Source: Protoeuglena noctilucae
Lineage: Eukaryota
Direction of reading: 5' to 3'
Length of the DNA stretch: 64,000 nt
NCBI GenBank assembly: GCA_958009085.1
Contig: OY253688.1
Location: 124,001 to 188,000, forward strand
Shown here: positions 1 through 22,000 of the stretch, piece by piece
Numbering within the stretch: the stretch's first letter is position 1
How the letters are laid out: each line of letters opens with the position of its first letter
Program-made: the position numbers and the translations under genes
The notes under the pieces: generated by a model
What the model saw: only the letters and a program-made list of their open reading frames with translations
What the model was told of the DNA's origin: nothing
Database searches by the model: none

Positions 1-91
1 GCTAACCACCCTCAGCGCACCTCGTGAGCGTGAAGACACACAGCAGAGCAGAGCAGAGTGGGGAACGGGCAAGTGCATAGTTCGCGTGCAG

Positions 92-2677
92 GTGATGCGA
101 GATTTGAAAGACGCGGCGCCCTCGGAGCCTCCCAGCAGTGGCAGTGGCCGCCACACGGGGCGGCTGCCGATGCCGGTGTCGTCCATTTGGCCCTGGTCGA
201 CCCTCACCCCTTGGATGGCCGAGGAGATGCGGAAGAGGGCGAGGTGAGAGATGTGCGTTGCTTGGCTGTGTACTGTCACTGCGACGTGAGACGGGGCGGG
301 GGGGAGCTGAAGCGGGAGGACGGTGTCACCCGGCGCTGCGTCTGTGATTACACTAAAGGGTCTCGTAAATGCTTTCATGCAGGGCCGACCTTCTGCTCAG
401 TGCACAGCTCCGTGATCAGCACACCTATGGCGTCTTCAATCCCTACGACAACCCCGCCTATCCGTCACGTGAGCTCACGCATTGCATGCATGTGGGGTGG
501 GCTAGGATCATCACCTGGTTCTTTTGTATCAACATGCCTGCACACTGTCATGTTTGTGGCTGACACAGACCAGAACGGGCTCATAAGCATGACATGTGAC
601 CTCTCTCGCCCATCTCCCAACACGCAGTGTCGGAGTTCATCGAGTCACATGAGGCGTCAGAAACAGTCCACGACGCCCAGGTGTTCCAGATCCTCGGACT
701 GACGCCCCAGTCGCGGTTCGCTGAGGCCGACGTGCTGCGGCGGTGCGCGCGGGACAGGCGAGGGGCGGCGGGACTGGCAGCTGCGGGGCGATGTGTGTGA
801 AACGGATCATGCAGTGTTTGTGGCTGTGGCTGTCGTTCGTTTTGATGCAGAAGTTTGTGTGTATATAGCTGCCCTCGCAGCCCGTGGCACGGCGAGGCTC
901 TCCTGGCCCTGGCGGAGGCGCGGCTGCGTTCCCTGGCGGCAGTGGGGGTGGCGGAGAGGTCTGCCGAGTCATGGGCCGCCCTGGCTGCGGCGGTGGGGGC
1001 GGACTTAGAGCAACCGGGGTACCTGGTGAGTCACCAGATAGTCAGGCACAGCCACAGAAATGTCAATGGCGTTTGCGATTGGTGATAAAGCTGGGCAGCG
1101 ATGCTGTTGATATCACGATTCAATGACTTACCCGTTTATCTCTCTCTTTCGATCAATCATTCCAGGCTTCCTCGGTGGGCGTGACGTACGAGGGCGTGGG
1201 AGAGGGCGACGATGCCAGGCAGTGGTGGCTGACCGACGAGGAGATGCGACACGGGGAGCCGTTGGGGGTGTCGGCACAGGCGTGCTCGATCGCGGGGCGC
1301 AGGTGAGGGGTGGCTGGGGTTGTTGGGTGGTGTGGGGGTGCAGGTGAGGGTTGCTAGTGTGGGAAAGGGAAAGTCGAGAACCACGTCTTGACTTGACGCC
1401 TCGACATCTTGACACGTTGACATCTCAGCGTCCCACCATCTCAGCTTACTCACCATCTCCTCATCTGATTCCCTCTCACACAGGAAGGAGCGTGACGTGC
1501 GGGTGCAGTCTCTGAAGAATCTCTTTACCCACCATCTGCGCACGACGCCGCACCTCGAGGCACCGGACGCGGGGAGCCGAGGGAGGCACGTCTCCGCTCA
1601 GGGTGAGCAGCCGGGGCACGGAGATGGGACAAGGGATAGTAATGGGTTGAGGGGAGCATGTCTTCTTTGCCAATAGTGAGGTCGGTAATGTTCGGCTGCG
1701 GTTTTTCCTCAACATCCACAATTGTATCCATTCGCATCGCAGCCTGCGTATCAACTTCAGTGTCACTTCATCCTCATGCCCTCTCCTGCCCCCAGTCCGC
1801 CAGCGCATTGCGGATCTCAACCCCCTCGACACGCGGCTGCACGCGGCAGCCTCACGCATGCTGGACGATCGCCTGGCTGAGTTGCGGACAGCAGGTGCGT
1901 TTGTGGTGTTAAGAGATACAGCCGTGTATAGTTAATATAATATCTGTAGTAGATTGCATCACAGTCAAACCGACTGCGGCACACCCTCCCTTCTCTTGCC
2001 ATCACAGAACCAGCCCACCCTCGCCTCACACGTGTTTCCTTTCTTCATACACTATAGTTAGTAATTACCTTTCGTGTGTCTCTCCGCGACCGCAGGCGCC
2101 CTGCCCTCGTTCCCCTCGCTGACGGACGATGAGGCGGAGGCGGCCGTGAGGCGCGCCAGGGAGGCCACGGAGAGGCTGCAGTTGCTGGGGAGGGTACGGA
2201 GACAGGCGAGCGGTGTTGCTGAGAGATGGATTGCTAGGGATGAGATTGCTATGAATGCTGAGGAGGGATAAGGTGTGTGGGAGAGGCTACAGTTGATGGG
2301 AGGGCACGCAGACAGGCGAGCGGTGTTGCTGAGAGATGGATTGCTAGGGATGAGATTGCTATGAATGCTGAGCAGAGACGAGGTGTGTTATGAATGCTGT
2401 TGGCGATGACGTGTGTCCAGAAAGCCACCGAGATGCTGGTGTGATGCAGACCCCTGCTGTGACGCAGCCCTTCTTCAGCATCACTCGTCATCCCACGCAG
2501 GAATCGTCTGTGGAGCTCGCGGAGGGGTCACCTGGGCACACGGAGTTTGCCGCTTACCTCACGGGTGCCAGCGGGGACGGTCGCGGTGGCGAGGGCGGCG
2601 GGGGCGACGGTGCAGCAGAGGTGCAGGAGGCTCTGTGGGAGGCCATGCGGCTGGCGAACCTCGCCAGGGAGCTGTGA
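92..2677 (+). CDS. TPST: Plant-type protein-tyrosine sulfotransferase (TPST)-like protein, 3' part (gene starts before the window); about 8 exons in the window
   Basis: Spliced exons give IWPWSTLTPWMAEEM, NPYD, VHDAQVFQILGLTPQSRFAEADVLRRC, GEALLALAEARLRSLAAVGVAERSAES, VRVQSLKNL and RIADLNPLDTRLH. These match plant TPST motifs as I recall them (IWPWKYLVPWMRED, HNGATFQIAGLTNNS, VAKRRLDSMLYVGLTE, LNNLDVELY). Ends ...NLAREL-TGA at 2677. Confidence 0.8.
2169..2372 (+). repeat. Tandem duplication (~93 nt x2) of an exon end, its splice donor and the intron start
   Basis: 2169-2262 and 2280-2372 share gagaggct(g/a)cagttg...gacaggcgagcggtgttgctgagagatggattgctagggatgagattgctatgaatgctgag. The donor agg|gtacg becomes agg|gcacg in copy 2. 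Confidence 0.95.
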
Positions 2678-2888
2678 GTGCTTTGTTGAAGATAGTAGTG
2701 CTTGGAGTAGCCTTGTTCAAGCAGAGGCTCTCTAGTCCTATGGTGGTGTGCAGCACATGCGCAGCGTCGACAGCGCAGGGCGTGCAAGCCACAGAGACGA
2801 ACATGCGTGGAAGTGAAAGCCAGCTTGGCTGTTTGTGGCTCATGGCTTGCTAGTTATGGCTCGTTGCTCACTTGTGGCTGGCTATGCT

Positions 2889-5800
2889 TTAGTTTGCGCC
2901 CCCCGAGCGCTTGGCACTGGGACGGCTGCCGCCCCTCGCCAATGCGGCAATGACCTGCTTGGCCTTCGCCATGGCCCTCTGCAGCATGACAGGGTTGTCC
3001 TCGCACGTTTCCATTGCCCTGTAAAGGAGCGGGGAGGTGTGCAGTTAGATGGCATGGCTGCACTGGTCGCCTTTGGCAGGGCAGCCCAGTAAGAAAAGTC
3101 ATCAATTGCTCATAACGTACAGCAAGAACTCATCCATTCAGCGAGCACTCGTCGTCTCAACAGACATGTGCATGACACATGCGTACTACTCACCGCGCCA
3201 GCACCCTCAGTGCCTCCGGCACGTCTTCCGCCAAGCAGATGGCCATGGCCTGGTCCATAGCCTCCGCCGCCCTCTCGCTGTCCATCGGGCCAGAAGAGGA
3301 GTTCTTGGCCTTCTCACAAACATCCTTGACGGCCTCGTCAATGCACTCTGTGGCGATCTTGACGTCGAAGACGGGGGAGCCGGCTGCGTGCGTCTCCAAC
3401 CGGCTGCGAGACATGCACGTGGCGGGGCCGAATCGCCGTTGCACCGACTAGCATGGTCGCTTTGACAAGTATGGCGCTGGTCCTACAACCGAGCATGTGT
3501 GCACCAGCTGAGAGACAAGTTCCAACCGTGCGTGTGCCTCACCTGGCCAAGCGAGCCAGCCTGCTGTGGTGCTGAGGAGCCCTGGCGGCCTCGATCAGGG
3601 CCGCCATGACAGCACTGTTGGCTGGTCGCAAAGCACTCCGGACTTCTCTGAGCTGCTGCTCAGCTGCCGGGGCCTGGCTCTGCCTGCTGTCGTCGTCGCC
3701 TGACGCCTCATCGCTGCCACCGTCACCGTGTCCGTTGGCACTCGCAGCCCGCGGGCGCTTGCTGCCCTGAGCCGCGTGGCTGGGGCCTTCCGGGGCAGAA
3801 GCAGGCCTCTTGTGGCCATTCGCGCCACCGGCCAGGGTTGCACGCACAGGTGCCAGTTCTTGCGGCGCCCTCCTCGCCACTGCCGCCGGGGCAGGGTCGG
3901 CAGCCGCGGCCTGAATCACGCCGTCGTCCTCGCCCATCCTACCGCCAAGGTACCGCTGCCAGCGCATGAGAAACGCATAGCCGGTTCAATGTTGCTTACT
4001 CGCCACAGCAGACGGCGGCAACCGTGAGATAACCCAAGTTGAACAAGTGTCGGGCGCAACGCCTACGCCTGGACGCTTCCATCCAAGCCCTCTTCCCTGC
4101 CCTGCCCTCCCCGCCAACGCTTTGCAAGCACTAGCCTGCCCTCCTCCAGCACCATCTTGGCCAGGGCAGCGACACCTTCACAAGCATCCAACGCCCTGGG
4201 GTCGCGACGAGTGCAGGGGCATTGTCGGCGACCACTAGGGTGCCTTCCATGCTCCGTTGTCAATGTCGCACTATGGGGCGCTCGCCCTCACCTCGCCGTG
4301 GCCTCCAGCACTCCGGCCAGGTCTACCGCTCGTCGAATCGCCGCATACCGACCCACGGCCTCCACCGCAGCCGCCGTGTCGATTGATGCCTTGGAGTCGG
4401 CTAGACTCTGTGAGACCCGACTCAGGCCCGCATTTGCTTGCCGGTGGGCGATGTCGGCCACAGCACGGAGCGCAGGTGCGTCCCCAGATACCACACTTGC
4501 CAGCCTGTGAAGGAGGCCACACAACCTGGGCATGAACAGTCGCAACGCGATTGTTGACATGTGCAACTCTCACTAAAGCAACCCGTCACCTGGACAACAC
4601 CTTGAGAGCTTGCCCGGGGTCAGGGGCAGCAGAAGCCTCGATTACAAGGGTGAGTGCGTGACGGCCTTGTGATGACGATGCCATGTCCCAGCATGCCAAA
4701 ATCTGATGCCCAAGATCCACAGGTGGCCCTCCAATAGGTAACATGAAAGACCGATGGAATGCATTACCTCGTGTAGGCCAATCAAGGGCCAGTTGACCGC
4801 ATAAGTCCTTATCAGCCGCATCCTGGCCCACCGCACCGCCCGTGTCGCTGCACCGGCGCTGGCGGGAGGGGCGCTCTGCCGCACCGTCAGCTCCGTGCGA
4901 ATCACATGATCCCGGCGCCAACCGCTTCTGACCAATCAAGACTTGGGATGGGGGTGTTTGCAACGCTGCACCACCATGCGCTAGGTTGGCCCCATCAGCT
5001 GCGGCAGAATGGCCCGTCCTTTGCTTCTGCGCTCAACACAGGGTGGGATGGGGCTGCCTATCACGTGAGGCTCCTGGCCATTCGCGCCACCCAGCGCCTC
5101 AGGACCCCTTGCTGTGACACTCACCCAGGTCGTGGTCTTCACCTCTGCACCCGTCACGCCCTTCTCTGAACCTTCCACCTCGAAGCTCTCCATCCTTGTC
5201 TTAAAGTGCGATTCCCTCCAGCACAAAGTCACGTTCGTTATCACGAGCGAGGGGCCCGCATTGATCTGCCTCAACCCACAGATAGTCCCATTTTTCAGCA
5301 CGAGCGGGTAGTCCACTGTGAGTGGCCCCGTGACGAACCACGTAGAGCCACCCAGATCAACAACACCCCCTTTCACCAACTCACGATTCTTTAACAACTT
5401 GAACAAATCTTTTTCTGGCTCAGCCTCAGAAGCCTGCGGGCGGCAGGGTATGCGAGTGTCGCCGCAGCAACTCCCCCACGCTGAGCTGAGCAAAGGCTGA
5501 GGCTGGCGCATCACCTGTGGGAGACCCAAAGTGGGGTCAGGCAAGGAGTAACGCAGCTCCCCCATGACGCGCTCGGCCTTCAGGCACTCCCCATCATAAG
5601 CCCCGCTGCAAGAAAGACGACAGCATTCGTGAGTTGCTGGCGCTTGTGCAAGGACATGATGACCCGCTGTTAAACCTTACCCGCGCGAGCTCGAAAGAGC
5701 GCTGAAGATATTTTTTATGGCCCTCTCGGACGATACAGCGGGGTCGCCCTTCCATTGCCTATAAAGCTCGGTGAACTTCTCACACAGGGTAGGGTCCCTC

Positions 5801-8239
5801 CGAACCAAGCCCACAGTGATGTATGGCAGGTGGCGCTCTCGCAGCTCCTGCACGCGATTGGCAGAGCGTAAAATGAGGTAAGATGGGTTGCCTTATCCTT
5901 GCAATGGAGTGTAACGTGCAGCCCGGGAGCCAATAGAACGAAGGTGTGCCGGTACGCGATGGCGAGCTGTGTAGCGTGTTCCATACCTGCACAATGGTCT
6001 TCACCGCCTCGTTCACAATCGTTGCTGAGCCCCCCATTCCCCTGCCACGGTCGTCCTCGAAAGTCGCAAAGCCGGCGTGAGTGGGGGGCGCGGGCACTGC
6101 CCCATCCGTGGCCAGTGCCGCATGCAAAGGGCCGGCCCTACGATCAGCGGCAGGCTGACTTCCTCCGTCCCCCTCATCCTGGCTGACGATATCCCTCTCT
6201 TCAGGCTCCACTGCACCGTGGCCCATCGGCTGTGCCTGCAAAGAGTGGTACTTGAAGGCTGATGAGCAAAGCCGCAGCTGTAGCAATCGATGCGCGTCCC
6301 GGCCCGCCCTGAGGTGCTGGGAAAGGCCATGATCATTCTGACCAACTGCGCCCGGTTTGAGGGCTTGTCTAGCCTTCCAGCATAGCATGTGCGTTCTGTG
6401 CGAGCGCCTCACCTCAATTTGCTTTTCGGAAATTGCGCCCACTGGTATCTTCGGCTGCCTGTCATTAAGCAGGGGCGAATACATTTCCTCCTCTTCCGTC
6501 TTTTCTCCGTATTTCTCAATCTGTGACGATGCCTTTATGACCTGCATACATGGAGGCTAGCCACGCTTTGCCTCTGCACACATGATTCAATGGCACGTCA
6601 GATATTTCAACAAACATATGTCACACACCTGGTGTTCGCTGGAAGCGCCTTTCGGCCTTAAAGAGAACGTGATGTCCCCGCGCTCTTGCTCCCAAACCAA
6701 GTCCTCAAATACATTTTTACTGCAGGGATACCAGCAACGTTAGCTGTCACTTCAGAATGGAATAAGGGGCGGAGTGGCGTAGTCTGCGAAGGACATGCAA
6801 GTGCTGCTCACCTCTTGCTGTGGAAGAGTGCCCAGAAGCACACCCACAGCCAATTGACCGCCTCTTGGTGTTCCAGGATTTCCATGTCGTAGCATCCCTG
6901 TCTTACATACTCCAGGGCAACATCTCGCTCAAAGCCCGCCGCAAGGAGCTCCCGCTTGGAAACACTGTTCCCGCTGTTGCGGTCAATCGCCTGCGGGCCG
7001 CAGAAGCCTTGCCTCCGTCATCAGCAAGTCGCATAAAAAGTAGCAGCCGGCTTGCGGCACCCTTTCGACGGCCGCACCTCGCGGATCATTCTCCAGAAGG
7101 TCGCTGGCTTCAGATGCTTCTTCTTTGGAAATTTTTCACGCATAATGTCCTGCGGACGGAGCCATGCGCCAGGAACTCACAGGAAGAAGGTTCATGAACG
7201 CAATTCCATCCGCGCTTGGGCTTGCCGAGGCTCACCGGCTTGCGCATCGATGCTGCAGCGCCTCGTGGCCCACTCGAGCGGCCAAAGCCACGCCGGTCTA
7301 TGCTCTCCATCGTTTAGGCTTTTTTTTCAGGCTAGATTCACTGACACCTATGCAAGCAGGGACAGGAGCTTTCACGCACGCGAGAGGCGCTTCGCCGCCT
7401 ATCACGACGGGACCGCCCCTGTCCAAGGAGCGTAGCAACCGAGAAGAGCGACAACACTTTAACACAAGCGTGATGAAAAACGAATGTACATCAAAGCCAA
7501 TGAACAGAGTACCAAGATTCTTCGCGGGCAAATTTTCTGTAAGTCTTGCGTGCGGTGGTTTCAAGTTTCTTAAAGTTTCCCCGAGTGTTTCTTCTCAGCG
7601 CAACAGAATACGTGAAAAATGACGCGGCAGAATACAGAAGGAGCGCTTGCGAGTGCGCAAGCCAATGCTTAGAACCAAGATGCATGTCTTGGCACAGTTT
7701 TTATATGTAACGAGTTTAGGCCATAGTTTCCAGCAAATTGTCGCTCATTTCTTTTGTTTTAAGACCTGAATTCCATGGTATGTGCAATTCAGGCTGACAT
7801 GAACGGGATAGGCGCGGAGGGTGATGTCCGAGTCGGGGGGACACAAGTCTTTCCCCCCGACATGGACGCTGCTGAGTTCAAGCGCTCCATGACATGTAGC
7901 TGTAGCTATCATGATAGTGTATACCGCGTCTGCATGGGGTGAGCAGTCACGGGCGCGGCAGCGTCCGCAGTGAGCGTCGTCGCAGGTCCCTGGAGTCCCT
8001 AGGCCTGCGAGCATGCGCAGCCACGCTCCGCTAGGCCCCAAGCTGCTAGCAGCCGACGTCGGCTGCAGGTCCAAGCAAGCTGCCGAACTCTCATGTGCCG
8101 CTAAGCTCCGGAATCCACCGCGCATTCCTGTGGAGCTGGCTTGGGCGGTGGATGCACCGCGCCCGGCACCAGGCCCGCCAACCCACGGGAACTCCTCACC
8201 GGTGGGCGGATTTCCAGGCGCTGCCTTGGACTTATCCAT
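2889..8239 (-). CDS. Orphan modular protein A: two winged-helix-like domains, NLS-like linkers and two helical modules; may be two genes; 5' end uncertain
   Basis: Phase-compatible GT-AG exons can be followed through most of ~7150 to TAA at 2889, and several are homologous to exons of the gene at 9185-13619. Upstream of 7150 I cannot follow a clean frame; ATG 8239 (MDKSKAAP) is only a candidate. There is an in-frame TAG at 4063 unless it is spliced out. Confidence 0.6.
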
Positions 8240-9184
8240 GACTGCTGCTGCCACGATGCTGCGCGGAGGCGAGGCGGTGCTGCACGCTGGGCCAGGTGCA
8301 TGTGTCAGAATGCGGAGTCGGGGCGTCGCGTCAAGAGGCCAGACGCGACTCGCGCGTCCCACATTTCCGGGACTGCGCTCGACTTGAGGCTGCGGAGGGC
8401 TGCGACGGCTTCTCTGGTCAGGCAGGTGAGGGCGGGGTGGGTTTTCGAAATGGAAGGGTCGTTTGAGCTGGCGCCCGGTGATGCCCGGCGGTTCCCGCGG
8501 CACGACACCCTGAGCAACAGATACATAATTTGCACCAAAATTGCTGGCAGACATATGGGGCCGCGATCGCCGGCGCGCTGACCCGGCGCGGGCGTGGCGC
8601 GCCCTGCAGCCTGTGCTGGGTCGCGCCGGGCCGCCGACGCCACTTTGGCAGCCACGGGGTCTGCAGTCGTCTTTCTGAGATGTAACTGATGTCACAAAGT
8701 GAAGCATTGACGGGCGGGAGAGGGGGGAACATGTCTTTTATGTCCTTTTCAAACTGAGGCGGGGCACCGCCGCCCCGTCCCGCTGCGGCGCACCCTGCTG
8801 GGCTCCGCACGCGCATTTGTGTTTTTGTTTGCGAGTCGCGCCCCGTGGGGTGCGATGGAACGGGGCTTTCCGAGCGCGGGATGGGCGTTGTTAGCCATGC
8901 ACATTCTTGTGGGCGGGCGGCAGCTTCCGGAGGTCCCGGCTGTGCGCTCCCTCCGGCTGATTCATGTGGGATTGCGTAGGCACGGCGTGATCTATGCGCG
9001 TCGCGTGCTGCATTTCGAGTTTCGGGGGGCAGCGGCAGGTTGTTAGCTTCGTGCATGAGTGTGCAGCGCTAGAAGCGCTGCATGCATGCCAAATTATAAT
9101 GAATAAAATGCCATGCGAAATTGGTAAACCTATTTAAAGCTTTTGATTGCAGTGTCGATTTCTGGAAAGCGCTATGTACCAAGG

Positions 9185-12100
9185 ATGATTGTGGGAGCAG
9201 CCGGGTCAATCAACCCGCTGGCGCGCGACCAAGAACGCTTGCAGGCGCGCGACCAAGATCGCCTCTACCAACGAGCCGAGGCAAGTCTGCAGTGTGCCTT
9301 GGGCGTTGCACCTCTTCGACGTCTTTAGCGGGTCGCAACTCCAGCGTCACCCCAATAACCCGCAGAACCGTCAAGCAAACAGCCATGTCCGGGAGGACTC
9401 TGCCGCAGTTGGCAATGACGCGGAGGGACGGGCCCCGCGCTCATCCCTGAGCATGCAGGCCCAGCAGGGCAGCGGCAGCAGCAGGGATGCGGACCGCCAG
9501 GGCATCTCAAGCTCGTCGCAAGTGGCGGCACCGGCCGGCAGGGCTCCGCCAGTGCCAGAGTCGGCGCCTGTGCGTGCAACCCCGGCCGGCGCTTGTGACA
9601 GAGTCAAGCGCTTGCTCCACGCGGTAAGGGAGCCTAAGCGCAGCGTGCTGCGCCATGCCGGGCCGAGGCAGCTACCCAGGCACGCAATGTGCCCGTATGC
9701 TGACCACAGGAGCTCCGTCGCATTTGGGAGAAGGAGGGCAGGCGAGCGGATTCCAGCCTTCGTCGCCTCGTCGATTCGCCCGACACTGAGGACTTCCGCC
9801 GGGCGCTCGCCAGCCTGAACTCTGACGGGCCGTGCAGTGCCGAGGAGCAAGCGATATTGGCAGAAGAGGTCCTGACGTCCTTCATCTTCGGCCTCTTGTG
9901 CGTGACAACATTCCTGAGCCAACGCTGTCTGCGGTCGCCACGGCTGCCACACCTTCAATTTAAAGCTTCTGACTCCTCGCAGTAAGGAGTCGGACCCGGA
10001 CATCGCATGGATACCTGGTGTCGGGCGCTTCGTCCTTCGTGTCGACTACCCCGACATGCCAGAGTTCCCCAGAAAGGTGAGAGCCGCAACGAGGTCTGTC
10101 ATATCGACCCAGTGCATCTGGCCCTGCAATTTCTGACGTATGGGTTCCTTGCCTCCCCCGCAGCTTCGTAGGAGTAGCATAGCCGCTCAGGACCTCAACT
10201 ACAACAGCGACTCTGGCAGCGAGGAGGAGGAGGACGAGGAGGAGGGCGGCCCTTCCCAGCGACAAGAACATGCTGATCTGACTGGCAAGAGCGTTCCGCG
10301 CTTGCTCACTGCGGTAAGCTAGCCCAAGCGCACCGATAATGAGCCATGCTATGTCGAGCCATGCAGGGCAGAGGCAGGTGCCCAGACACACCGTGCGTCC
10401 CCATGCTCATTGCAGGAGCTCCGCGAACTGAAAACCCTCGGCATCCATCGCGTGTCGGACGCCCAGCTGCGCGAGATGGGGTTCAACACCGACATCACTC
10501 GGGAGTACGTGCGGCAGGGGTGCCATGATGAGAGCATCCTTGAAGAGGACACGGAATTTGAGCGGTGCGCCAAGAAGTTCTTCGACTCTGCGCGTCGCTG
10601 CTTCGGGTGACCTCTCTGGCGGGTGCTGCAGCTCAGCGCTGGCCTCGTGCTTTGTGCGCATCTTGTGTATCAAGATGGATTAGGACCGTGTGCTTCCATC
10701 ATGTGTCATACCTCCGCAGGGAGAGGGTCCACCCTGTCGTGAAGTGCGAGGCTCGACGGCAAGCTCTACTTCTCCCTGAAGCCTCGGCACGGCAGTGCGG
10801 GCGGGGTGAAAGCTTGACTGGGTGGCATTTGCGCGTGGTCAGCTGAAGTGTGGTTGTCCATTCATGTATCTCATTCGCCTTCTCTCCTGCCTCTGCGCGC
10901 AGGGAGGCAGTGGCGGCGCCAATGGTCAGCTGCAGGGCAACACGCGGCGTCCCCACCAGCGTGGTCGACTGGGCAGGGACGGGGCCGCAGGGGAGCCCAG
11001 GACGGGGCGTAAGCAGCTGAGGAAGGGCACCGTGCGCAGGATTCTGCTGAAGGTGAGCGCGCTGGCACCCTGTAGGAGCAGGTACGGATCCGCATGGGTG
11101 GCTCTGGTACCCGTGCAGCGTAGTTGGGGACACCTCGAGCACAAGCGCCTTTGCTTGCAGTGGCTGAAGAAGATGCGCGAGCAGGGCATCGGATCGGTGA
11201 CCAGGACGGAGCTGAGGCGAGGCGGATTCAGAAAAAAAATCAAGGCAGAGTACGAGCGCCAGGGGTGTCCGGTGAAAAAATTTTGGTGCAAATTCTCCGA
11301 CGCCGCCACCAAGTGCTTCTTGTGAGCTGAGCGGCGCATGGATAGACTTATGTTATGTGATGAACGCAGGCCTGGCTAGCGTTAGGCTTGTCCGATTGCC
11401 GCTGCCCCTGATGGCCTCTGCAGCAATCGTGTTGACAAGTACATCGGGGCTGAGGCCACCCCTGACGGGGACATGCGGTTCTTCCTCAGAGAGCTCCACG
11501 GCGGCAACGGGCAGGTTGGTACCACTGAAGCTGTGTTGTGCTTACCTGAAGCTGGAGCTATATTGGCTGCGGGGTACATCCACGATGCATCATCCACGAT
11601 GCATGGTGTGGCATGCGCACTTTCTGATGGCCAGCAGGTGGGCCACGGCACAGCAGAGCCCGAGGGGGAGGAGGACGCTGAGGAGGGTGCAGAGGGGGAG
11701 GAGGAGGAGGAGGAGGAGGAGGAGGAGGAAGAGGATGACGAGGAGGGCGAGGATGACGAGGAGGCTGGGGAGGGCGAGGAGGGAGAGGAGTCTGGGGAGG
11801 CTGGGGAGGGCGAGGAGGCTGGGGAGGGTGGGGAGGGCGAAGAGGCTGCTGGGGAGGGTGAGGAGGGTGAGGAGGGCGAGGAGGCTGGGGAGGGTGAGGA
11901 GGGCGAGGAGGCTGGGGAGGGTGAGGAGGGCGAGGAGGCTGGGGAGGGCGAGGAGGCTGGGGATGGCGAGGAGGCTGGGGAGGGTGAGGAGGGCGAGGAG
12001 GCTGGGGAGGGTGAGGAGGGCGAGGAGGCTGGGGAGGGTGAGGAGGGTGGGGAGGGTGAGGAGGAGGAGGAAGAGGACGACAACATGACACAGCCGACTG

Positions 12101-13619
12101 CTGACCCTACCTTGGCAGCAGTGACCAGCAGGGTGCCGCCAGCGCCAGAAGCAGCACCTATGCGTGCACCCCTGACCTGTACCACAAATGGCCACAAGAG
12201 GCCTGCTCCTGCCCCGGCGGAAGGCCCGAGCCATGGAACCCAGGGCAGCAAGCGCCCGCGGACTGCGATCCCCAGCGGTGACGGTGACGGTGGCGATGAG
12301 GCGGCAGGGGCAGACGGATGCACGCACAGCTTGGGCCAGGCTGCCACGCTGTGTGTGGGGAGTGCACCCCTGGTGCTCGGGGAGCTGGTGATGACCGTAT
12401 ATGACCTGGCTCAGTCAAGCTATGGCCCCCTCATTCCCCTTCTGCACAACGCCGCCACTGGTACCGATCCCATCTGCGCCCTGACTCACCCAGAAAGGTG
12501 AGGGTCTGGCGCAACGATGGTGGCGTCACAGAGTGTGACGACACGGTCTGCACGAGCTGCCCCCTTAATGGCTCATGTTGCTTACATTGCAGCCTGCGGG
12601 AGGTGGACGCCGGAAACGCCTCCACCAAGCATGCCTACTTCCTCATCGCATCGCGTGTGGTGGAGGTGACGTACGCTCAGGTTGTCGACGCCGCTGACGT
12701 CATGGTCCCAAGCACGCGGCTGTGGCCGTCCACGTCCCTATACGCGGAAATCGATGGAGCGCAGGATTCTCTTGCACTGCTGAAGGCTCTGGGAAGGCGA
12801 GGGAGGGGAGCTTGCTGCAGGACACTAGCTGCTGAAGCTGCGACTGCGTTGACAAATGGGCCAGCCGTGCGAGCCACAACATGTGTCGTGTCTTGGCTGC
12901 AGTGCTCTGGTGGAGGTCGGGGACATCCCGCTTTGGCGCAAGCAGCACCTGGAAAGGGCTCTGTGGGTGCTGGCGGAGCTGACGGCGCACGGGCTGACCG
13001 CCCAGGATGATACTCAGCTCGTGTCACGACTCGTCGCAGTGTGGAACCTTGCTCGCAGGGGCCATGGCCCTCTCCTACTCGCCCTGCACGAGGCCGCCAC
13101 GGCGCCCAGTCCCATGCGCGCCCTCGATGCCCTGGCCAGGTGACGGGCCACTGCGGCTGCGTCGCTATTGAGGCTGAACACGAACCCACTCGAGCCAAAC
13201 TCCGGTCACTACCACTGCCGTCGCAGGGCGGCGGAATTGGTGGCCCGAGATGCCTCTGCTATGTGCGCCGTGGCCGCCCTCATTGGCCAGTGGGTCAGCG
13301 AGGCCCAGAGCCAGGAGTTCGTGGGCGCTTCCGAGATCTCTAGCTCGCAGGGTGTGGAGGCTATGGTTCACTACGCGGCACTCCGGCGGGCAGCTTGCCT
13401 GGCCAGTTTGGCAAAGGCCCTGGCGAGGTGGGCGCAAGGGTCACATTATTGGTCGCGTTGGCTGCGTGTGCTGCTGGACCGGTCAGTCCGCCCCGACTCA
13501 TGCTGCGCCTTGACCTCAGGACCCTGGAGGCTTGTTGGAGTGTCCCCGACGCGTGGAGGAATGTGCTGGAGGAGGCCCAGAGCGCTCTAAGGGAGCATGA
13601 GCGTCGTCTCGGGCAGTGA
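9185..13619 (+). CDS. Orphan modular protein B, paralog of A: three winged-helix-like domains, Glu/Gly tract, NLS-like linker and two helical modules; probable frameshift near 10750
   Basis: About 15 phase-compatible exons, e.g. ELRELKTLGIHRVSDAQLREMGFNTDITREYVRQGC, WLKKMREQGIGSVTRTELRRGGFRKKIKAEYERQGC and GVEAMVHYAALRRAACLASLAKALAR. Ends RRLGQ-TGA at 13619. The start at 9185 depends on a GC donor at 9281. Confidence 0.65.
11660..12080 (+). repeat. Coding purine-rich minisatellite encoding ~140 aa of Glu/Gly repeats (EEAGEGEEG)n
   Basis: Imperfect 18- and 27-nt units gaggaggctggggagggt(gaggagggc) within the open frame 11473-12501. Confidence 0.95.
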
Positions 13620-13916
13620 TGGGGCCGCAAGCTGCTGCGGTGCATGCAGCAGGCGGGGGCTGGGCATCGATGGTGGCCCGATGTGATCGCGATCCTCATG
13701 TGAGACCTTTCAAAAGCCTCCCAGCAGAGTCGAGGCTGAAGCGTTGGCTGGCTAGCAAGATCTAGCAAGATCCTTGAATCACAGCGCCAGGGCATCCATA
13801 GCTGCCAGCGCACGAGGCAACTCCAGCGCGCGCCGCCACGCCATCCCCGTCAGCCATCCCATCCAACCCAGGTGCTCCCCTGTGCATTCCCAACATTCCA
13901 GCAGCCTCATTGGCCC

Positions 13917-15524
13917 TCAGAACTTGAACACCTGGTCTTTGCTGTACCCTAGCTCCTTCAGGATGCCCTTCACCTCCCCCTGGTCCTTGGGAGACACCTT
14001 GGCACCTGCGTGTGCGGCACAGAAGCACGATATGGAAAGCCTGACTGGGCATTTCACCCAAAATGGTCTGCGCTTTGTAGCCAACGCATTGAGGCGGTCC
14101 ATGTACGCCACTCTGCGAGCCATCCCCAGTCATCCCCACCCCTCACCTGACACCACGTTCATCATCCCCGGGGGCCCGCAGACGAACACCATGGACCCTG
14201 CCTGGTCGGCGGGGGGCAGGTGCGCCTTGAGCATGTCTTTGGTCAGGTACCCCACCCCGCCCTTCCAGAACAGGCCCCCGAGGCTGGCCTTGTCCACCAC
14301 GTAGTAGACCTTCAGCCGGTCGCTGTGGGCCTGCGAGGATGGGGGCAGGCGGGTGGGAGAGGGATGAGATGAGCGAGAGAGGGACGACAGAGCAACAACC
14401 ACCACCTGCGACTGATCCTGGTGGGCTCCTGCCCGCATGTTACTCAACCATCCAATCACTGTGTCTCTCGTATTCCCCTCACCTTGGCCCATGCGTCGAT
14501 GCGGTCCTTGAGGATGATGTCCGACTCGGTCTGGTTGGCGAACACCAGGGACACCTGCGTCTTGTCGTCCTTGTTGGAGAGGATCTCGTCAATCACCTGC
14601 AGCATCGGGGTGATGCCGGAGCCGCCCGCCACCATGCCGATGTGGCGGTACATGTTGGGCTGCAGGAAAAGGTGGGGGTGCGCGTGGAAGGGAGTGAGCG
14701 AGACGGTCGATGCCTGTCGATGCTCCCATCATCACAGTGGTCGATTATCACGATGCCACCATCCTATGCACCCTGTTCATCACACCTTGTAGTCCAGCTT
14801 CACGATCGGGCCCTTCATCTCCAGCTTGTCACCGACCTTGAGGTCGCCCACGTGCTTGCTGACCTGCAGAACAGCATCGAAACAACGATTGAAGCGCTTG
14901 GGTAGCGAAGCGCGCCTGCGTTGTGCGATCCACACAGACGCATGCACCCACGCACCTTGCCCTGTGGGTAGACCTTGACGACCAGGTCGAGGTAGCCGGC
15001 GGCGGTGCGGGGAGAGGTGGGCGTGTACGGCCGCACGGCCATCTCCGTCGACCCGTCCTCCTTCGGCACCGGGCCGCGGACCAGCAAGCACGACGCGACC
15101 GGCATGCCCGAGTTCTTGCCGTCGGGGAGCTCGAAGCGGAACAGGTGCGTGTTGCCCGTCAGCTTCTCGCGGTGCTGCGGGGAGCGAGGCGCGGGCGACG
15201 CGTGTCGGTTGCAGGGTTGGGGCCCCTAGCGGCGCGGGGGGGACGCATCGCCGGCCACCTGGAGCTTGAATGCGCGCCACTCATCCGGATTCAGCGCACT
15301 CTTCGACGCATCGGCCGCGGCGCTGCTCTGCGGGCGCGGGGGGCGGTCACGAGGGCGGTCACCCTCGGCACCCGCGAGCGCGCGCTACGCCCCTCGAGAC
15401 GCTCCCCGGGACCATCGGCGGACTATATACTACATACATGCATCATCTGCATCCCTAACGCGGTCGCCAGCGTGCCCGTCGCGCACGCCGCGACGAGCGG
15501 GCGCGCCCTCAAGAGCGCCTGCAT
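13917..15524 (-). CDS. NADH-cytochrome b5 reductase, mitochondrial (MCR1/CBR2-like), 7 exons
   Basis: FAD motif [23 protein letters not shown] motifs [13 protein letters not shown] and [10 protein letters not shown], and the C-terminal [23 protein letters not shown] typical of the MCR1 type. Confidence 0.92.
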
Positions 15525-16024
15525 CGTGGCGTAACTACAGCGGGGTCACGAACACGGAAGTCAGCGCGGGTGAAGATGTCACGCGAAGAAGCGTCGGCGA
15601 GTCTGGGCGAGGTGCGAGGGCGACGCGCCGGATGAGTGTGCGCGCCTGCGCCAGTGAGCGGCGCAAGCGCGCGCGTTTCGTGCCGATGCGGCGTCGGATG
15701 TCGGCATTCAACGGTCGTCACCCATGCTTTATGCCCATGCCATGCATCGCGCAGCACCTCGTCACCGCGGGCTCACAGGACGTGACGTGAGGCAGGCAGG
15801 CGAGACTGGGGAAGAAGCAAAGCCACTAGAGGGGAAACGCGCGGCTTTGGGGACACGGCAGCGCGCAGTCGCTGCGCTGCGCAACGCGACACCGCAAGCG
15901 CGCGGATAGGTGGTTGGTCAGTGAGCAACAGGGCACGAAACGGACGCAGTCTTCTAGTCGGGTTGGATCCATGCATACATCAGAACACAAAAGGAAAGGG
16001 CCGGTGCGTGTCTTGCAACGCATC

Positions 16025-19000
16025 TCAGACCCACGCGTTGCCGTTAGCATCGCCGTTGGCCTTGCCATTGCCATCGGCATGAGTGTGGGTGTGCCGGGCT
16101 CGGTCCATGCTGCGGCGCTTGGAGCTGCGGCGCCTGATGCTGCCGTGCTCGGCGCTGGTGCGGTCCTCCGGGCCCCTCAGCGAGGCCTCCTCGGGCGGGG
16201 GGCGCCTGTGGGTGGTCTGCGGGGGCGGGGAGGGCGAGCAGCGTGGGGGCGTGCGAGGTGGAGCAGAGCGGTGGCAGTAAGAAGCACTACTAGAGTGGCA
16301 ATGCAATTGCATCAAACGAGCAACTGAGCGATGCGAATCAGGCAAATTAGAGTCCCAGTCATGCATGACAGCTGCCCATGCTGTGCATCAGCCACGCCTT
16401 CTCCACGGCACATTCGACATCGACAGCAACCACGACCACCCGAAGACTCGTGCGATGACTGTCACTCACCGACACGCGCGTGACGTACTCGAGGTTCCCG
16501 ATGCACCGGTGGATGTTGTCGACGATCTCGTCCGCCTCCTCGCGGCTGCGACCCTTGGCGATCTGGCCGGACGACACGGCCTCCTGGGCCACGCGGCGCA
16601 CCTCTTGGGCCAGCTGCGGGGGTGGTGGAGGGGGGCAACAATGGCGGTCGTGATCTCTAGCGCTCGAATTCCAATCGCTTTGCATAGAAGTCAGCTCAGC
16701 CAGTTGAAGCTAATTCCGCACAGCACCCATTACACGCGCATACCTGCAGCAGATATCGCCCCCAGCCCTCACCTCCACCAGCGCCTCCCTGGGCATGCCC
16801 TTCTCCTTACACCATTCATGTCCATCTCTACTCATGCCCATCTCTTCCTATCATCCCATCTCACCTCCACCAGCGCCTCCCTGGGCATGCCCTTCTCCTT
16901 GGCGAACTCCAGCCCGCGCTTCGTGTCCTCCAGCTTCCGCCTCATTGTGGCCAAAGGCGGTGCCGCATCGCACAGCTCCAGCAGTCGGTCCACGGCGTCC
17001 ACCACCCAGTTCTCGAGCAGCTTGCCCTCCACGAAGCCCACGGACTTGCTGGGGGCCAGGGAGAGGGGTGTGTGTTTGTTTGGATGGGTGGGGTAGGGGG
17101 AGGGGTGGTAAAGGCGAGAGTGCGAGGGTTGCTGGGAGGGAGTGGAGGAAGCCGCCCGCCCACCGCAATCGCAACACTCCATTGCCACTGCCATCCATCC
17201 CGCCTGCTCCCTACCACACCAATTCACCAACCCATCGCTGTCATTTCCAATCCCTCCGTCCCCTCACCGCGCGACCGTGTGCTCCTGGTCCTCGGGGCTG
17301 TCGGCGTCCCTCACGTGCACCACCTCCGACACGTTGATGTTGAAGACGTTGTAGCGACGCATGAGCTTGTACAGCAACACCTGAACGGAGAGGGAGGGGC
17401 GATAAGCAAGATCGTAAGCGCGGTAATGGGGCAGGGCAGTGAGTGCTCGTCACTTTGAGCACGTGCAACGATGATAAACCACGCGCTGCCATGCCACACA
17501 GCACCAACAATATGGTGAATGCATGCAGTAGCAGTGATCACCTTGAGCACGTCCAGCACGATGAACCATGCGCTGCAGTAGATCCAAACGTAGATGAACA
17601 GGGGCTTGTGGATGGCCACCTGGCCACGGAAGAGACCCTCAGCAGGGACGCCAGAGGTTTTGCCGGGGGGCCAGGCGATGGCGAGCACTGGGGGGTTGGG
17701 GGGTGGGTGCGGTGAGTGTGGTGGTGGTGGTGATGGTGGCGGTGGCGGTGGTGATGGTGGTGCAGTGGGTGGGTGCGGGGAACCGGTGGAGGTGACCAGC
17801 GATGTCTGACACAATACGACAGACACATGCTCATCATGTTCTGAACAAACACGCTGGCCCCATTCTCACCGGTGCTGACGACCATGGACAGCACCGCCCC
17901 GAGCATGAGCAGCCAGTGGGGCTGGGAGTGCCAAAAGAAGTAGTCATGGGTGCGGGCGGCAAAGACGGTGAGGAAGTCGGCGATGGAGATGGCCATGTAA
18001 AGCAGCGTGATGACCTGCATAGAGGAAGAGAGTGTAAATTTATATTATATGACATACAGAGGTGGCCATGCACAGAAGCGTGATGGCCTGGGGAAAGATG
18101 GGGTCTAAGGTGGCATCAGCAACGCATCCACGCTCTCGCTCCAACACTTGCTCTCGCCACACAACCCGAGTCGCGCCCCACATCCCCGCCCCTGCCACCA
18201 GCCCCGTCGCCACATAACACCGCACTCGCTCTCTCACCTTCCCGTAAGGAATGTACCCGATGCCCAGCGTCTGGAACACCCCCGTGGGGCTGGTGGAGTC
18301 GAGGGCGAAGTAGAGGAGCAGGAGCGTGGAGAAGCACATGATGAGGCCGAGGAAGGTGGAGACGAGGAACTGCGGTGAGATGTGGGGTGAGAGGTGTGAC
18401 GAAAGGGTAATGGCAGGGGGGTGGCATGCATGGGTAGGGAGCGGCGGCGAAGGGTGGAACAAGCGACAAGTGTTTATGGCGAACGAGCACACCCATGCTA
18501 ATGCTGAGCTCTCTTCCACCTCCTATGCACCTTCTCACAACCACCCATTACATGCTGACCAACACCCACCAACGCTCACCAGCACCCGGATGCGCCACTT
18601 CTCCGGCCGTGGCGAGGGCGACACGCGGTCGTAGCTGACGAGGATGAGCGTGCCATCGTTGAGAATGGCGATGAGCACCAGCATGAGGACTGGCAACTCA
18701 AAGAAGTCGGGGATCGTCGACTCGAAGTCTGTGCACGCCTGCCCCGTGAGGCCCAGGCGCGCGCAGTTGTAGTAGTGCCGGGGCTTGAAGGCGAACACGG
18801 CGATGAAGAAGAACAGCAGCAGCTGCACCGTGGCGGCGATCCTGGGGGTGAAGAGGGGTGGGGTGTGGGGCGTGTGGGTAGGTGGCAGCGGGGGGGGGAG
18901 GGATGGTTGGGTGTGGGAGGGTGGCAGCGGGGCGGGAATCGGCGGGGTGGGTGGGAGGGTGGGGTGATGGGCTGTGGGGTGGAGGTGCGTCTGGTGTCAC

Positions 19001-22000
19001 CTGTACAATGGCTCTTCATACCCACCATGCTCAATTCTCATATCACCCATCTCCCCCCTCACCTGTATGTGAGGTAGCTCTCCATACACATCCCACCCAT
19101 CTCCCCCCTCACCTGTACGTGAGGTAGCTCTTCATGCGGCCGAAGATGATCCGGGACAGCTCCATGGCGTGGATGATGGTCGACAGGCCAGGCTCCGTGA
19201 AGATGATGTCGGAGGCAGCGCGGGCGGCGTCCGTGGCGCCCGCCACGGCGATGCCCACGTCAGCACGCTTCAGCGAGGGGGCGTCGTTCACGCCGTCCCC
19301 CGTCATGCCCACCGCAAAGCCTGGGGGGGAGCAGCGAGGGGGTGAGGGTGAGGATGGGTGTAGGAGAGGGGCTGGGATGAAGCACGAAGAGTGACACTCG
19401 CGTCGCTACCGATGCACTTGCCTGCCTCCGCATCTCGACCATCAGCACCCCACCCCCACCACTCGCCTGCTTGCCCCCATGCACACCCTCACTCACACCA
19501 CCCTATCTCACTCGCCTGCCTGCCTGAGCGTCTCCACGATGAGGAACTTGTGCTCCGGGAACACCTGGGCATACCCATCGGCCTTCAGCACCATCTCCCC
19601 GTACTTCTTGCCCAGATCCTTCGGCACCGTTCCGTCCTCGTTCATCGAAGGGAGCTCGTCCGGGCCCTCGATGCGGTCGCTGAGGCCGATCAGGCGGCAC
19701 ATCTCCTTGGCAATCAGCACCTGGTCGCCCGTCACCATCTTCACCACCAGGCCTAACTCCAGGGCCTGGCGGATCGTCTCCTGGGAGAATGAGTGGGGGC
19801 GAGGAGCGTGTTAGTGGCAGTGCGTGACTTTGTGAGGTGAACAAGAGGCTAGCAGTCAGCGGCTGTGCCACAGCGATCGCCCGCCACCCCACGCACCCCT
19901 CACATGCACACGCACAAGCACAGCAGCAATGGTGCACCGACCACTTATCAATACTTCGCTATCAGTAACTACCATCTCCATGCCTCTCTCGCCTTGGTGT
20001 CCTCCCGGGGAGGATCCAGGAACGTCAGCAGCCCAGCGACGCGCCAGTCGCCATGGTCGTCCGTGCGCGCCACCGCCAGGCACCGGATGCCGCGAGCCGC
20101 GAAGTCCTTCACCGCCACCTCCACCTGCTCCGCGACCTTCGCCTCGCCCTCGCCCAGCAGCGCCAGGATGCGCTGGGGTGCGCCCTTGGCCACCTGGAAC
20201 GTCTCGCCTTCCGGGCTCACCACCGTGGCCTCCGTGCGCTTGGTGGTCGGGTCGAACGGCACGAAGTTCGTCTGCTTGTACCGATCGCACTCGTCCAGGT
20301 CGGCGGAACCCAGCACCATGGTGTCCAGGGCGTCGCGGGGGGGCTCGCGCCACTGGGATGGAAGGCGAGGGATGGGGGTGAGTGGAGTGAGTGGGGTGAG
20401 TGGACAGGGAAAGACGGGATCGGGTGAGAGTGGGCGAATGGCCAGCGCGTTGCCCAAGCACAGCCACCCGCTGCCTTCTGTGTATGTGTAATACACAGTG
20501 TGCAACGTGCGGTGTGCGACATGCGATGTGCGTGCCAGTCACCTTGGCGGCCAGTGCGGCCAAGAGGAGGACCTTGTCCCTGTCCATGTTGGGCATGAAG
20601 GTGGGGCAGTGCTCCTGCACCTCCATCTTGTTCTTCGTCAGAGTGCCTGGGGTCACAGGCGAGGGGCCGGGCGTGTGTCGTCACGTCAGACATGAGGGGC
20701 TGGGCATGGCTGCTAACGCCAACAGAGGTATGCTACTACAGCACACACTGCCTGCACTCCCACACAATCCCAGGCAATCCCACTTTGCATACACCACCTT
20801 CCCAGCACACCGCAGTCATCACAACTCCAGCTCCCTCACCGGTCTTGTCCGAGCAGAGGATGTTCATGCCGGCCATCTCCTCGATGGCCGCGAGCCGCGT
20901 GACGATGGCGCCGTGGCGGGAGAGCTGCCGGGACCCGAGGGCGAGGGTGGAGGTGATGACGATCTCCAGGGCGATGGGGATGGACGAGATCAACACCACG
21001 ACGGTGAACTCGATCGATTTGCGGAACGAGTTGCCGATGCCCATCAAATACCCGAAGCACGTGAAGCACAGCACCACGGCCGCCACGAGGAGCGTCACCA
21101 TCATCTTCAGCAGGAGCTTCTGCAGGCTGCCCATGCCCCCCACGCTCTGGATCATCGTCGCCGACTTGCCCAGGTAAGTGTGGCTGCCCGTCTTCTCCAC
21201 CATCGCGCGCGCCTCGCCGCGCATGGCCGTGGACCCCATCATGCACTTGTGCCCCGGATCCATGGTCACCGGCATGGACTCGCCAGTGAGCGCCGCCTGG
21301 TCCACCTCAATGCGACCCTCGATCACGATGCAGTCCGCAGGGATGGCCGACCCCGACCCCAGGAGCACCAGGTCGCCGGGGACCAGGTCCGCGGCATCCC
21401 TGGTCTCGAAACGACCGTCGCGGCGGACGGTCGCGGACGGCTTGAGCGACTTCTTAAGAGCAGAGACTGGGGGGCAGGGCGAAGGTGGGCGTGCGGCATG
21501 TGGCGTATGGCAGGCGCGGTCGAGCACGATCCGTGCCCGCAAGGTTCCCTGGCCATGCCGGCAACCCCCATCATCGCCAGGCGCGGCATGCGGCACGCAC
21601 GACATGTGCACAGCCCCTCGACATGCTGGCAACGCCCATCTCTGTCAAGCGCGGGGTGCGCTTACCACGACAGCTGCATGCGCATCGACCGCCTCTTACC
21701 TGCGTCCTGTGCCTTGGTCGCCTCGTGCCAACCGATGGTCGCGTTGGCGAGCTGGATGGCCAGCAGCAGGCTGCCGTCCACGTAGCTCTGAATGCCGTAC
21801 TCGACGATGATGGCGGCCCAGAGCATGAACGGCATCGGGCCCCAGAGGCGGTCCAGGAAGATCCTGCAGCCGAGGCAGGGCGCAGGGCAGGTGACCCTTT
21901 CGCGTCGAACGTGGCCCCCGCCAGCGCGAAACCGCCCTCGGGAGTCGCGTCACCTGAGCTTGCTCTTGACCTTCTCCTCCAGCTCATTCTTGCCGTACTG

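Follow-up and report, generated by a model that had tools for sequence, protein, structure and literature searches.

A candidate orphan module encoded by a three-exon cassette in two divergent genes of Protoeuglena noctilucae

Two divergent genes in a stretch of Protoeuglena noctilucae DNA (contig OY253688.1 of assembly GCA_958009085.1, positions 124,001 to 188,000; this whole stretch of 64,000 nucleotides is called the window, and coordinates count from its first letter) both appear to open with an orphan module of ~90 residues in tandem copies, as units B1, B2 and B3 of gene B on the plus strand and units A1 and A2 of gene A on the minus strand. We give a probability of roughly 0.55 to the explanation, its functional part included, that these are paralogous genes whose tandem modules stem from a duplicated three-exon cassette. 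The first exon of the cassette would encode a linker and half of the first helix and be followed by a phase-0 intron, the middle exon would encode a helical core with the motif G-x3-V-[ST]-x2-E-L-x3-G-F-x3-[IV]-x2-E-Y-x-R-Q-G-C and be followed by a phase-2 intron, and the last exon would encode a strand-turn-strand-like pattern. Being bounded by phase-0 introns, such a cassette could be duplicated in frame, and the identical intron positions would have been inherited with it, rather than arising from independent intron gains or reflecting a structural signal; because the three-exon cassette was duplicated as a whole, the shared positions would need no special cause. B2, B3 and A1 would be the well-conserved copies and B1 and A2 the decayed ones, the origin of A2 being read from gene structure only. 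Since the genes encode acidic tracts, a conserved basic motif (KRP..KRPR) and a helix-turn-helix-like core, the proteins would be nuclear and the module a small nucleic-acid- or chromatin-binding domain with a helix-turn-helix-like centre. Judged from its sequence, the module is a real cassette-encoded orphan present in three good copies, with two further copies decayed or doubtful, and at least one of the two genes is expressed if certain database contigs are taken as cDNA (see below).

Three-exon units and their homology

A sequence-only reading of the same DNA had described five copies of a domain with identical intron positions. Its coordinates and peptide strings were correct on checking, and so were its phases, the first intron being phase 0 and the second phase 2 in 5/5 units when the predicted junctions were spliced by script. 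The units and their exons are as follows.

..9623, 9710-9897 and 9983-10076, plus strand: module B1, located exon boundaries
9710..9897, plus strand: B1 middle exon, a degenerate copy
9983..10076, plus strand: B1 last exon (KESDPDIAWIPGVGRFVLRV..), ending in phase 0
10164..10313, plus strand: B2 first exon, acidic linker and half-helix (..SVPRLLTA)
10416..10606, plus strand: B2 middle exon, conserved core (GIHRVSDAQLREMGFNTDITREYVRQGC)
10720..10805, plus strand: B2 last exon, in which the frame shifts by one base near 10751
10903..11052, plus strand: B3 first exon, Gly/Arg linker and ..TVRRILLK
11161..11321, plus strand: B3 middle exon (WLKKMREQGIGSVTRTELRRGGFRKKIKAEYERQGC..)
11424..11514, plus strand: B3 last exon (NRVDKYIGAEATPDGDMRFFL..), ending in phase 0
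7143-7078, 6990-6812 and 6719-6629, minus strand: module A1, located exon boundaries
6812..6990, minus strand: A1 middle exon (..NSVSKRELLAAGFERDVALEYVRQGCYDMEILE..)
6629..6719, minus strand: A1 last exon (KNVFEDLVWEQERGDITFSL..)
(6022)..5987, 5847-5681 and 5605-5515, minus strand: unit A2, tail of the first exon (exon a), middle exon and last exon, with the same exon phases as the other units

The phase-0 intron follows ..RLLHA in B1, ..RLLTA in B2, ..RILLK in B3, ..RMIRE in A1 and ..KTIVQ in A2. The internal introns of the units (n = 10) are 75-139 nt long and have GT..AG borders in 10/10 cases, with a GCAG end in 9/10. The last exons of the units end in phase 0 and the first exon of a following unit begins in phase 0, so that each three-exon set, with phase-0 boundaries on both sides, makes a symmetric cassette. 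Right after intron 2 the three good copies (B2, B3 and A1) begin with ERV, NRV and KNV, respectively, which indicates that this intron lies at the same place and not only in the same phase. Codon-position GC content is coding-like in all five units (GC3 > GC1 > GC2, with GC3 at 0.70-0.81 and GC2 at 0.39-0.46), the introns having a GC content of 0.58. Sampled words of 5400-12100 were present at a share of 0.09-0.26 in four metatranscriptome runs and of 0.96-0.98 in DNA runs; these shares were not used as evidence.

The count of five copies held in part: B2, B3 and A1 are supported by a protein profile and B1 by DNA, whereas the homology of A2 was not shown. The profile, built from the three good middle exons, matched nothing but these exons when the window was searched as 1635 six-frame pieces (next best E 2.4), the A1 middle exon matched B2 by tblastn (E 7.4e-07), and the score of the B2 junction region was exceeded by only 1 of 1000 shuffles. 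Last-exon similarity scores were reached by 0/1000 shuffles for A1, 5/1000 for B3, 22/1000 for A2 (marginal only) and 101/1000 for B1, which thus has no significant likeness to the other last exons. At the DNA level, B1 and B2 match at 68% over 126 nt (E 8.6e-11), spanning the end of the first exon, intron 1 and the start of the middle exon, and this match through an intron suggests that B1 is a decayed duplicate and that the duplication included the intron; the protein similarity of B1 is weak, its profile score being reached in 8/1000 shuffles. For A2, the profile score was reached in 61/1000 shuffles and the junction-region score in 177/1000, and A1, its best pairwise match, aligns with it out of register; its standing as a module copy is inferred from its exon phases, exon sizes, position beside A1 and short ELRE.. 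and ..GELRYSL ends. Introner-type repeats were considered and rejected, as the B1/B2 intron-1 pair is the only case in which any of the ten introns recurs within the window.

Growth of domain arrays by duplication of symmetric exon cassettes is a well-known general mechanism. The units described here resemble such phase 0-0 arrays in their three-exon build, in the preservation of internal intron positions and phases and in a pair (B1 and B2) that can be aligned through an intron, but differ from them in that the domain belongs to no known family and the array is divided between two divergent paralogues.

Relatives and possible fold of the module

The five middle exons matched 0 Pfam families at E <= 10, a word-based search with the B2 middle exon confirmed 0 of 41 candidates, and viral contigs gave 0/118 pattern matches. 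An HMMER profile search of 1.84 billion representative proteins listed seven at E <= 0.001, the sole strong one being the window's own read-through open reading frame (ORF; P0001); the other six were rejected as repeat proteins matched over short stretches, namely the HA-domain protein P0002, four proteins whose repeats read as tail-fibre-like and one with a repeat of MFYRRQGC. The best score for the module in the ESM Atlas was 0.84, below the level called meaningful, a PDB sequence search with the three-copy profile found only designed consensus TPR proteins, and Rfam had no match on positions 1-20000. DUF959, CAF1A_dimeriz and Pertussis_S2S3 were set aside as chance Pfam hits (16.8-17.4 bits against cut-offs of 25-27).

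AlphaFold2 was given the unspliced middle exons only, without the hairpin exon. It placed helices at 2-7, 15-20, 27-33, 40-43 and 48-62 in B2 (pLDDT 62) and at 2-7, 15-20, 23-34 and 41-52 in B3 (pLDDT 65), and the helix order, which is alike in the two models, agrees with H1-loop-H2-turn-H3-H4. Helices followed by a possible hairpin would be compatible with these computed data, by which a winged-helix fold is neither shown nor refuted.

The proposal of the sequence-only reading, that the module belongs to the winged helix-turn-helix fold, broadly taken, and binds nucleic acid, seems to us possible but rather unlikely. Its elements would run in the order helix 1, short strand (G-I-x-R-V), helix 2, turn (G-F), helix 3 (EYxRQ), an extra helix and a beta-hairpin wing, which is our own reading and not the output of a tool. 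The helix order predicted for the middle exon fits it, as do the loop, in which an invariant Val is followed by a Ser/Thr helix-cap pattern, and the strand-turn-strand pattern kept in the last exons of B2, B3 and A1. However, none of the Pfam helix-turn-helix or winged-helix families matched a middle exon at E <= 10, an additional helix placed between H3 and the hairpin is non-canonical, and the hairpin itself is absent from the models, in which the middle exon alone was folded.

Probable expression of gene B and alternative readings

Several points weigh against the cassette explanation proposed above. The last exon of B2 contains a one-base frame break at ~10751 (10745-10755, plus strand), with ..VVKCE upstream and LDGKLYFSL downstream, and a genuine break combined with use of the canonical acceptor would truncate the protein ahead of B3. 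B1 and A2 are without significant protein-level similarity to the core copies, and the ten junctions within the modules are predicted sites only. Foldseek returned 0 matches in the PDB for the B2 and B3 models, whose pLDDT is low, and no fold was matched. Among 92 ORF pieces of both genes nothing exceeded the Pfam cut-off, leaving them without a domain of known function, and the module is, on sequence comparison, an orphan whose relatives are absent from every library searched. The nuclear binding role is our best guess, drawn from composition and short motifs only.

The frame break accounts for the dots in the B2 peptide of the sequence-only reading and leaves the B2 unit with 427 nt between its phase-0 boundaries, which is not a multiple of 3. 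It may reflect a misassembly or a genuine lesion, or it may be bypassed via a poor downstream AG at 10749-10750.

A query with the C-terminal ORF of gene B retrieved the protein P0011 (282 aa), whose cluster includes P0013 (390 aa); both derive from JGI/IMG and Logan contigs (<=2637 nt). P0011 is a letter-for-letter splice of five window segments (12391-13616), directly followed by TGA, and is wholly contained in P0013, the N-terminus of which corresponds to gene B from ~12070 onward. Because these sources call genes without splicing, the contigs are probably cDNA, in which case at least the 3' half of gene B would be both transcribed and spliced. P0013 begins at the end of an acidic repeat, which probably broke its assembly. 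The P0011-mapped introns (12498-12592, 12797-12902, 13140-13226 and 13428-13519; 87-106 nt) are phase 2 in 4/4 cases and end in GCAG in 3/4, and they provide a calibration for the sites predicted in the modules. The intron at 12797-12902 (plus strand, 106 nt) is of GC..AG type (GCGAGG...CTGCAG), the other three being GT..AG introns. The C-terminal region of gene B matched its own spliced products only, and P0013 had no Pfam family or PDB sequence match.

This spliced product bears on the reading in which part of the five-copy pattern is artefactual, gene B perhaps being a decaying pseudogene and B1 and A2 perhaps no module copies at all, with their junctions chosen to fit. The frame break in B2 and the failure of B1 and A2 in protein-level tests would be expected under such a reading; moreover, stop codons do not dictate the donor of B1 intron 2 or the exon a junctions, and the search of 1.84 billion proteins gave no transcript-derived protein over the modules. 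We nevertheless consider it unlikely, since the 3' half of gene B is present as a spliced product in public data, B3 is strongly similar to B2 and A1 and has coding GC3 although it lies downstream of the break, B1 and B2 are homologous in DNA through intron 1, and codon-position GC is of coding type in all five units.

A distant relationship of the module core to a known three-helix nucleic-acid-binding motif, either sigma-70 region 4.2 (PF04545) or the HA domain (PF03457), is quite improbable. A pattern scan of metagenomes returned 4 loci, all reading as sigma-70-type factors, one of which (L001) was confirmed by Pfam and contains a 26-residue match inside Sigma70_r4 with 14/26 residues identical to B2. 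The alignment is ungapped, B2 and region 4.2 having L-x-E-x-G-x5-I-T-R-E-x-V-R-Q in common, but 8 of the 14 identities were forced by the search pattern, and the sigma recognition helix continues where the supposed recognition helix of the module ends at the conserved Gly-Cys. By hhalign, the module matched 27 region-4 sequences with a probability of 64% (P 6.5e-5; 0/200 column shuffles as high), whereas the probability was only 16% (P 0.0016) once the 3 sigma sequences selected by the pattern had been taken out, and of the single copies only B2 matched (P 1.9e-4), B3 giving 0.016 in another register and A1 0.22. The HA-domain protein P0002 was listed by HMMER at E 5.6e-8 over six repeats, a value that is the sum over six short repeats, and hhalign against these repeats gave a probability of 69% (P 4.5e-5, 22 columns). 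Like the module, the HA domain is a short helical unit found in tandem arrays, and the two share a local match (G-I-x5-A-x-L-x2-M-G-F-x2-D), but the 22 columns, from a unit of ~64 residues, lie at the end of the HA unit and in the middle of the module. The P values for both families are inflated because the families were chosen by prior search, with P0002 selected out of 1.84 billion proteins, and at E <= 10 no middle exon is hit by the Sigma70_r4 or HA model of Pfam.

It is still less probable that the units are helical hairpins of TPR or other protein-interaction type and the proteins scaffolds instead of nucleic-acid binders. Designed consensus TPR proteins match the three-copy profile over 18-19 residues (AYYKQGDYDEAI vs EYVRQGCYDMEIL; EYVRQGCYD.EIL), and the predicted helix-loop-helix around QGC is compatible with TPR. 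However, this match (E ~1) is not significant, B3 lacks ten residues that bear half of the resemblance, Pfam TPR models gave no match, and the last exon of the module is strand-like and not helical. As far as sequences allow a judgement, none of the sigma, HA and TPR resemblances is robust, and they mainly show a generic helix-turn-helix-like core. The far-reaching possibility that the module founds a new eukaryotic nucleic-acid-binding family of one marine algal lineage, its helix-turn-helix core derived from a sigma-70 region 4 of bacterial or plastid type and multiplied by cassette duplication within a larger helix-plus-hairpin domain of nuclear proteins, is highly improbable.

LOTUS/OST-HTH domains (PF12872) are ~80-100 residues long, consist of helices followed by a hairpin, with the winged-helix order alpha1-beta1-alpha2-alpha3-beta2-beta3, and often occur in tandem. 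The suggestion that the module is such an RNA- or helicase-binding domain, raised by the sequence-only reading, is not supported and is extremely improbable: the general order of elements and the tandem arrangement speak for it, and hhalign places the first helix of the module on LOTUS helix 1 without significance, but Pfam OST-HTH matched 0/5 middle exons at E <= 10 and a comparison of the spliced three-copy alignment with 26 OST-HTH domains from bacteria gave a probability of 0.3% (P 0.22) with a score of 11.2, within the range of 100 column shuffles (median 10.2, maximum 15.5). The reference came from one bacterial phylum (61 of 301 bacterial genomes with the domain; 30 loci returned and 26 used, one with a stop in frame and three others being left out), and the five single modules gave P 0.029-0.5 against its profile. 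Unlike LOTUS domains, the module has an extra helix between the supposed helix-turn-helix and the hairpin, and Pfam scans found no helicase, Tudor or NYN domain in gene A or gene B.

Layout of the locus and significance

The window is clearly eukaryotic sequence; it is GC-rich (0.55-0.72 per 2-kb step) and has short open frames linked via GT..AG intervals of ~100 nt. Genes A and B lie head-to-head with a spacing of ~2.3 kb, gene A on the minus strand with its first in-frame ATG (putative start) at 7143, and gene B on the plus strand from its first in-frame ATG (putative start) at 9453 to an end at ~13619. In gene B the three module units are followed by a Glu/Gly repeat, the basic KRP..KRPR motif and a C-terminal region rich in Ala and Leu, and a C-terminal segment is common to both genes. 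The Glu/Gly acidic tract is encoded by a GAG/GGT-type tandem repeat (11662-12077, plus strand; period 9-12, ~35-44 copies). The remaining exons are as follows.

9453..9623, plus strand: gene B exon 1, start ATG, Ser/Gln/Pro-rich leader and first half-helix of B1 (..DRVKRLLHA), with a predicted donor (GTAAGG) at 9624
11638..12497, plus strand: gene B large exon, acidic repeat, KRP..KRPR basic motif and start of the C-terminal region, with a predicted acceptor at 11637
12593-12796, 12903-13139, 13227-13427 and 13520-13616, with the TGA stop to 13619, plus strand: gene B 3' exons, from the exact mapping of P0011
7078..7143, minus strand: gene A exon 1, start ATG at 7143 and first half-helix of A1 (MREKFPKKKHLKPATFWRMIRE)

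A further segment on the minus strand (3523-3896) encodes a protein sequence 61% identical to the KRP..KRPR region of gene B over 67 aa (3662-3859). Its similarity to gene B in all three frames points to paralogy at the DNA level, and its position, downstream of where gene A matches the C-terminus of gene B, indicates a permuted order; it may belong to a third, module-less paralogue. A short Pro/Ala motif (A-P-x-R-A-x-L/P-x-G) recurs at 9522-9589 (plus), 12110-12170 (plus) and 3828-3887 (minus), that is, directly before module B1, before the basic motif of gene B and in the paralogous minus-strand segment. The C-terminal region of gene B also contains an internal repeat (12388-12483, VMTVYDLAQSSYGPLIPLLHNAATGTDPICAL, vs 13030-13125, LVAVWNLARRGHGPLLLALHEAATAPSPMRAL; plus strand), 44% over 32 residues. 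The large exon of gene A after A2 (5122-5448, minus strand) is beta-rich by reading; it has no known family, its best ESM Atlas score was 0.80, leads to G8 or beta-helix proteins were below the meaningful level, and its only database relatives were P0009, which is its own ORF, and P0010, which differs in one residue (L to V) and comes from two short ENA contigs. The next gene downstream of gene B is encoded on the opposite strand and includes an ORF piece (14133-14588, minus) with a PF00175 oxidoreductase NAD-binding domain (E 5.7e-9).

Algal genomes commonly contain orphan genes with internal repeats, and the significance of the present case is modest, as it opens no long-standing question and the agreement of intron positions is explained in an ordinary way. 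In practice it is of use as an aid to annotation, since homology-based annotation would miss or mis-split genes A and B, which carry no known domain. Should the module prove to be a genuine folded binding domain, the lineage-restricted domain families would gain another member, and if the cassette explanation is true, these genes would offer a clean small example of array growth by symmetric cassette duplication in which one pair of copies can still be aligned through an intron.

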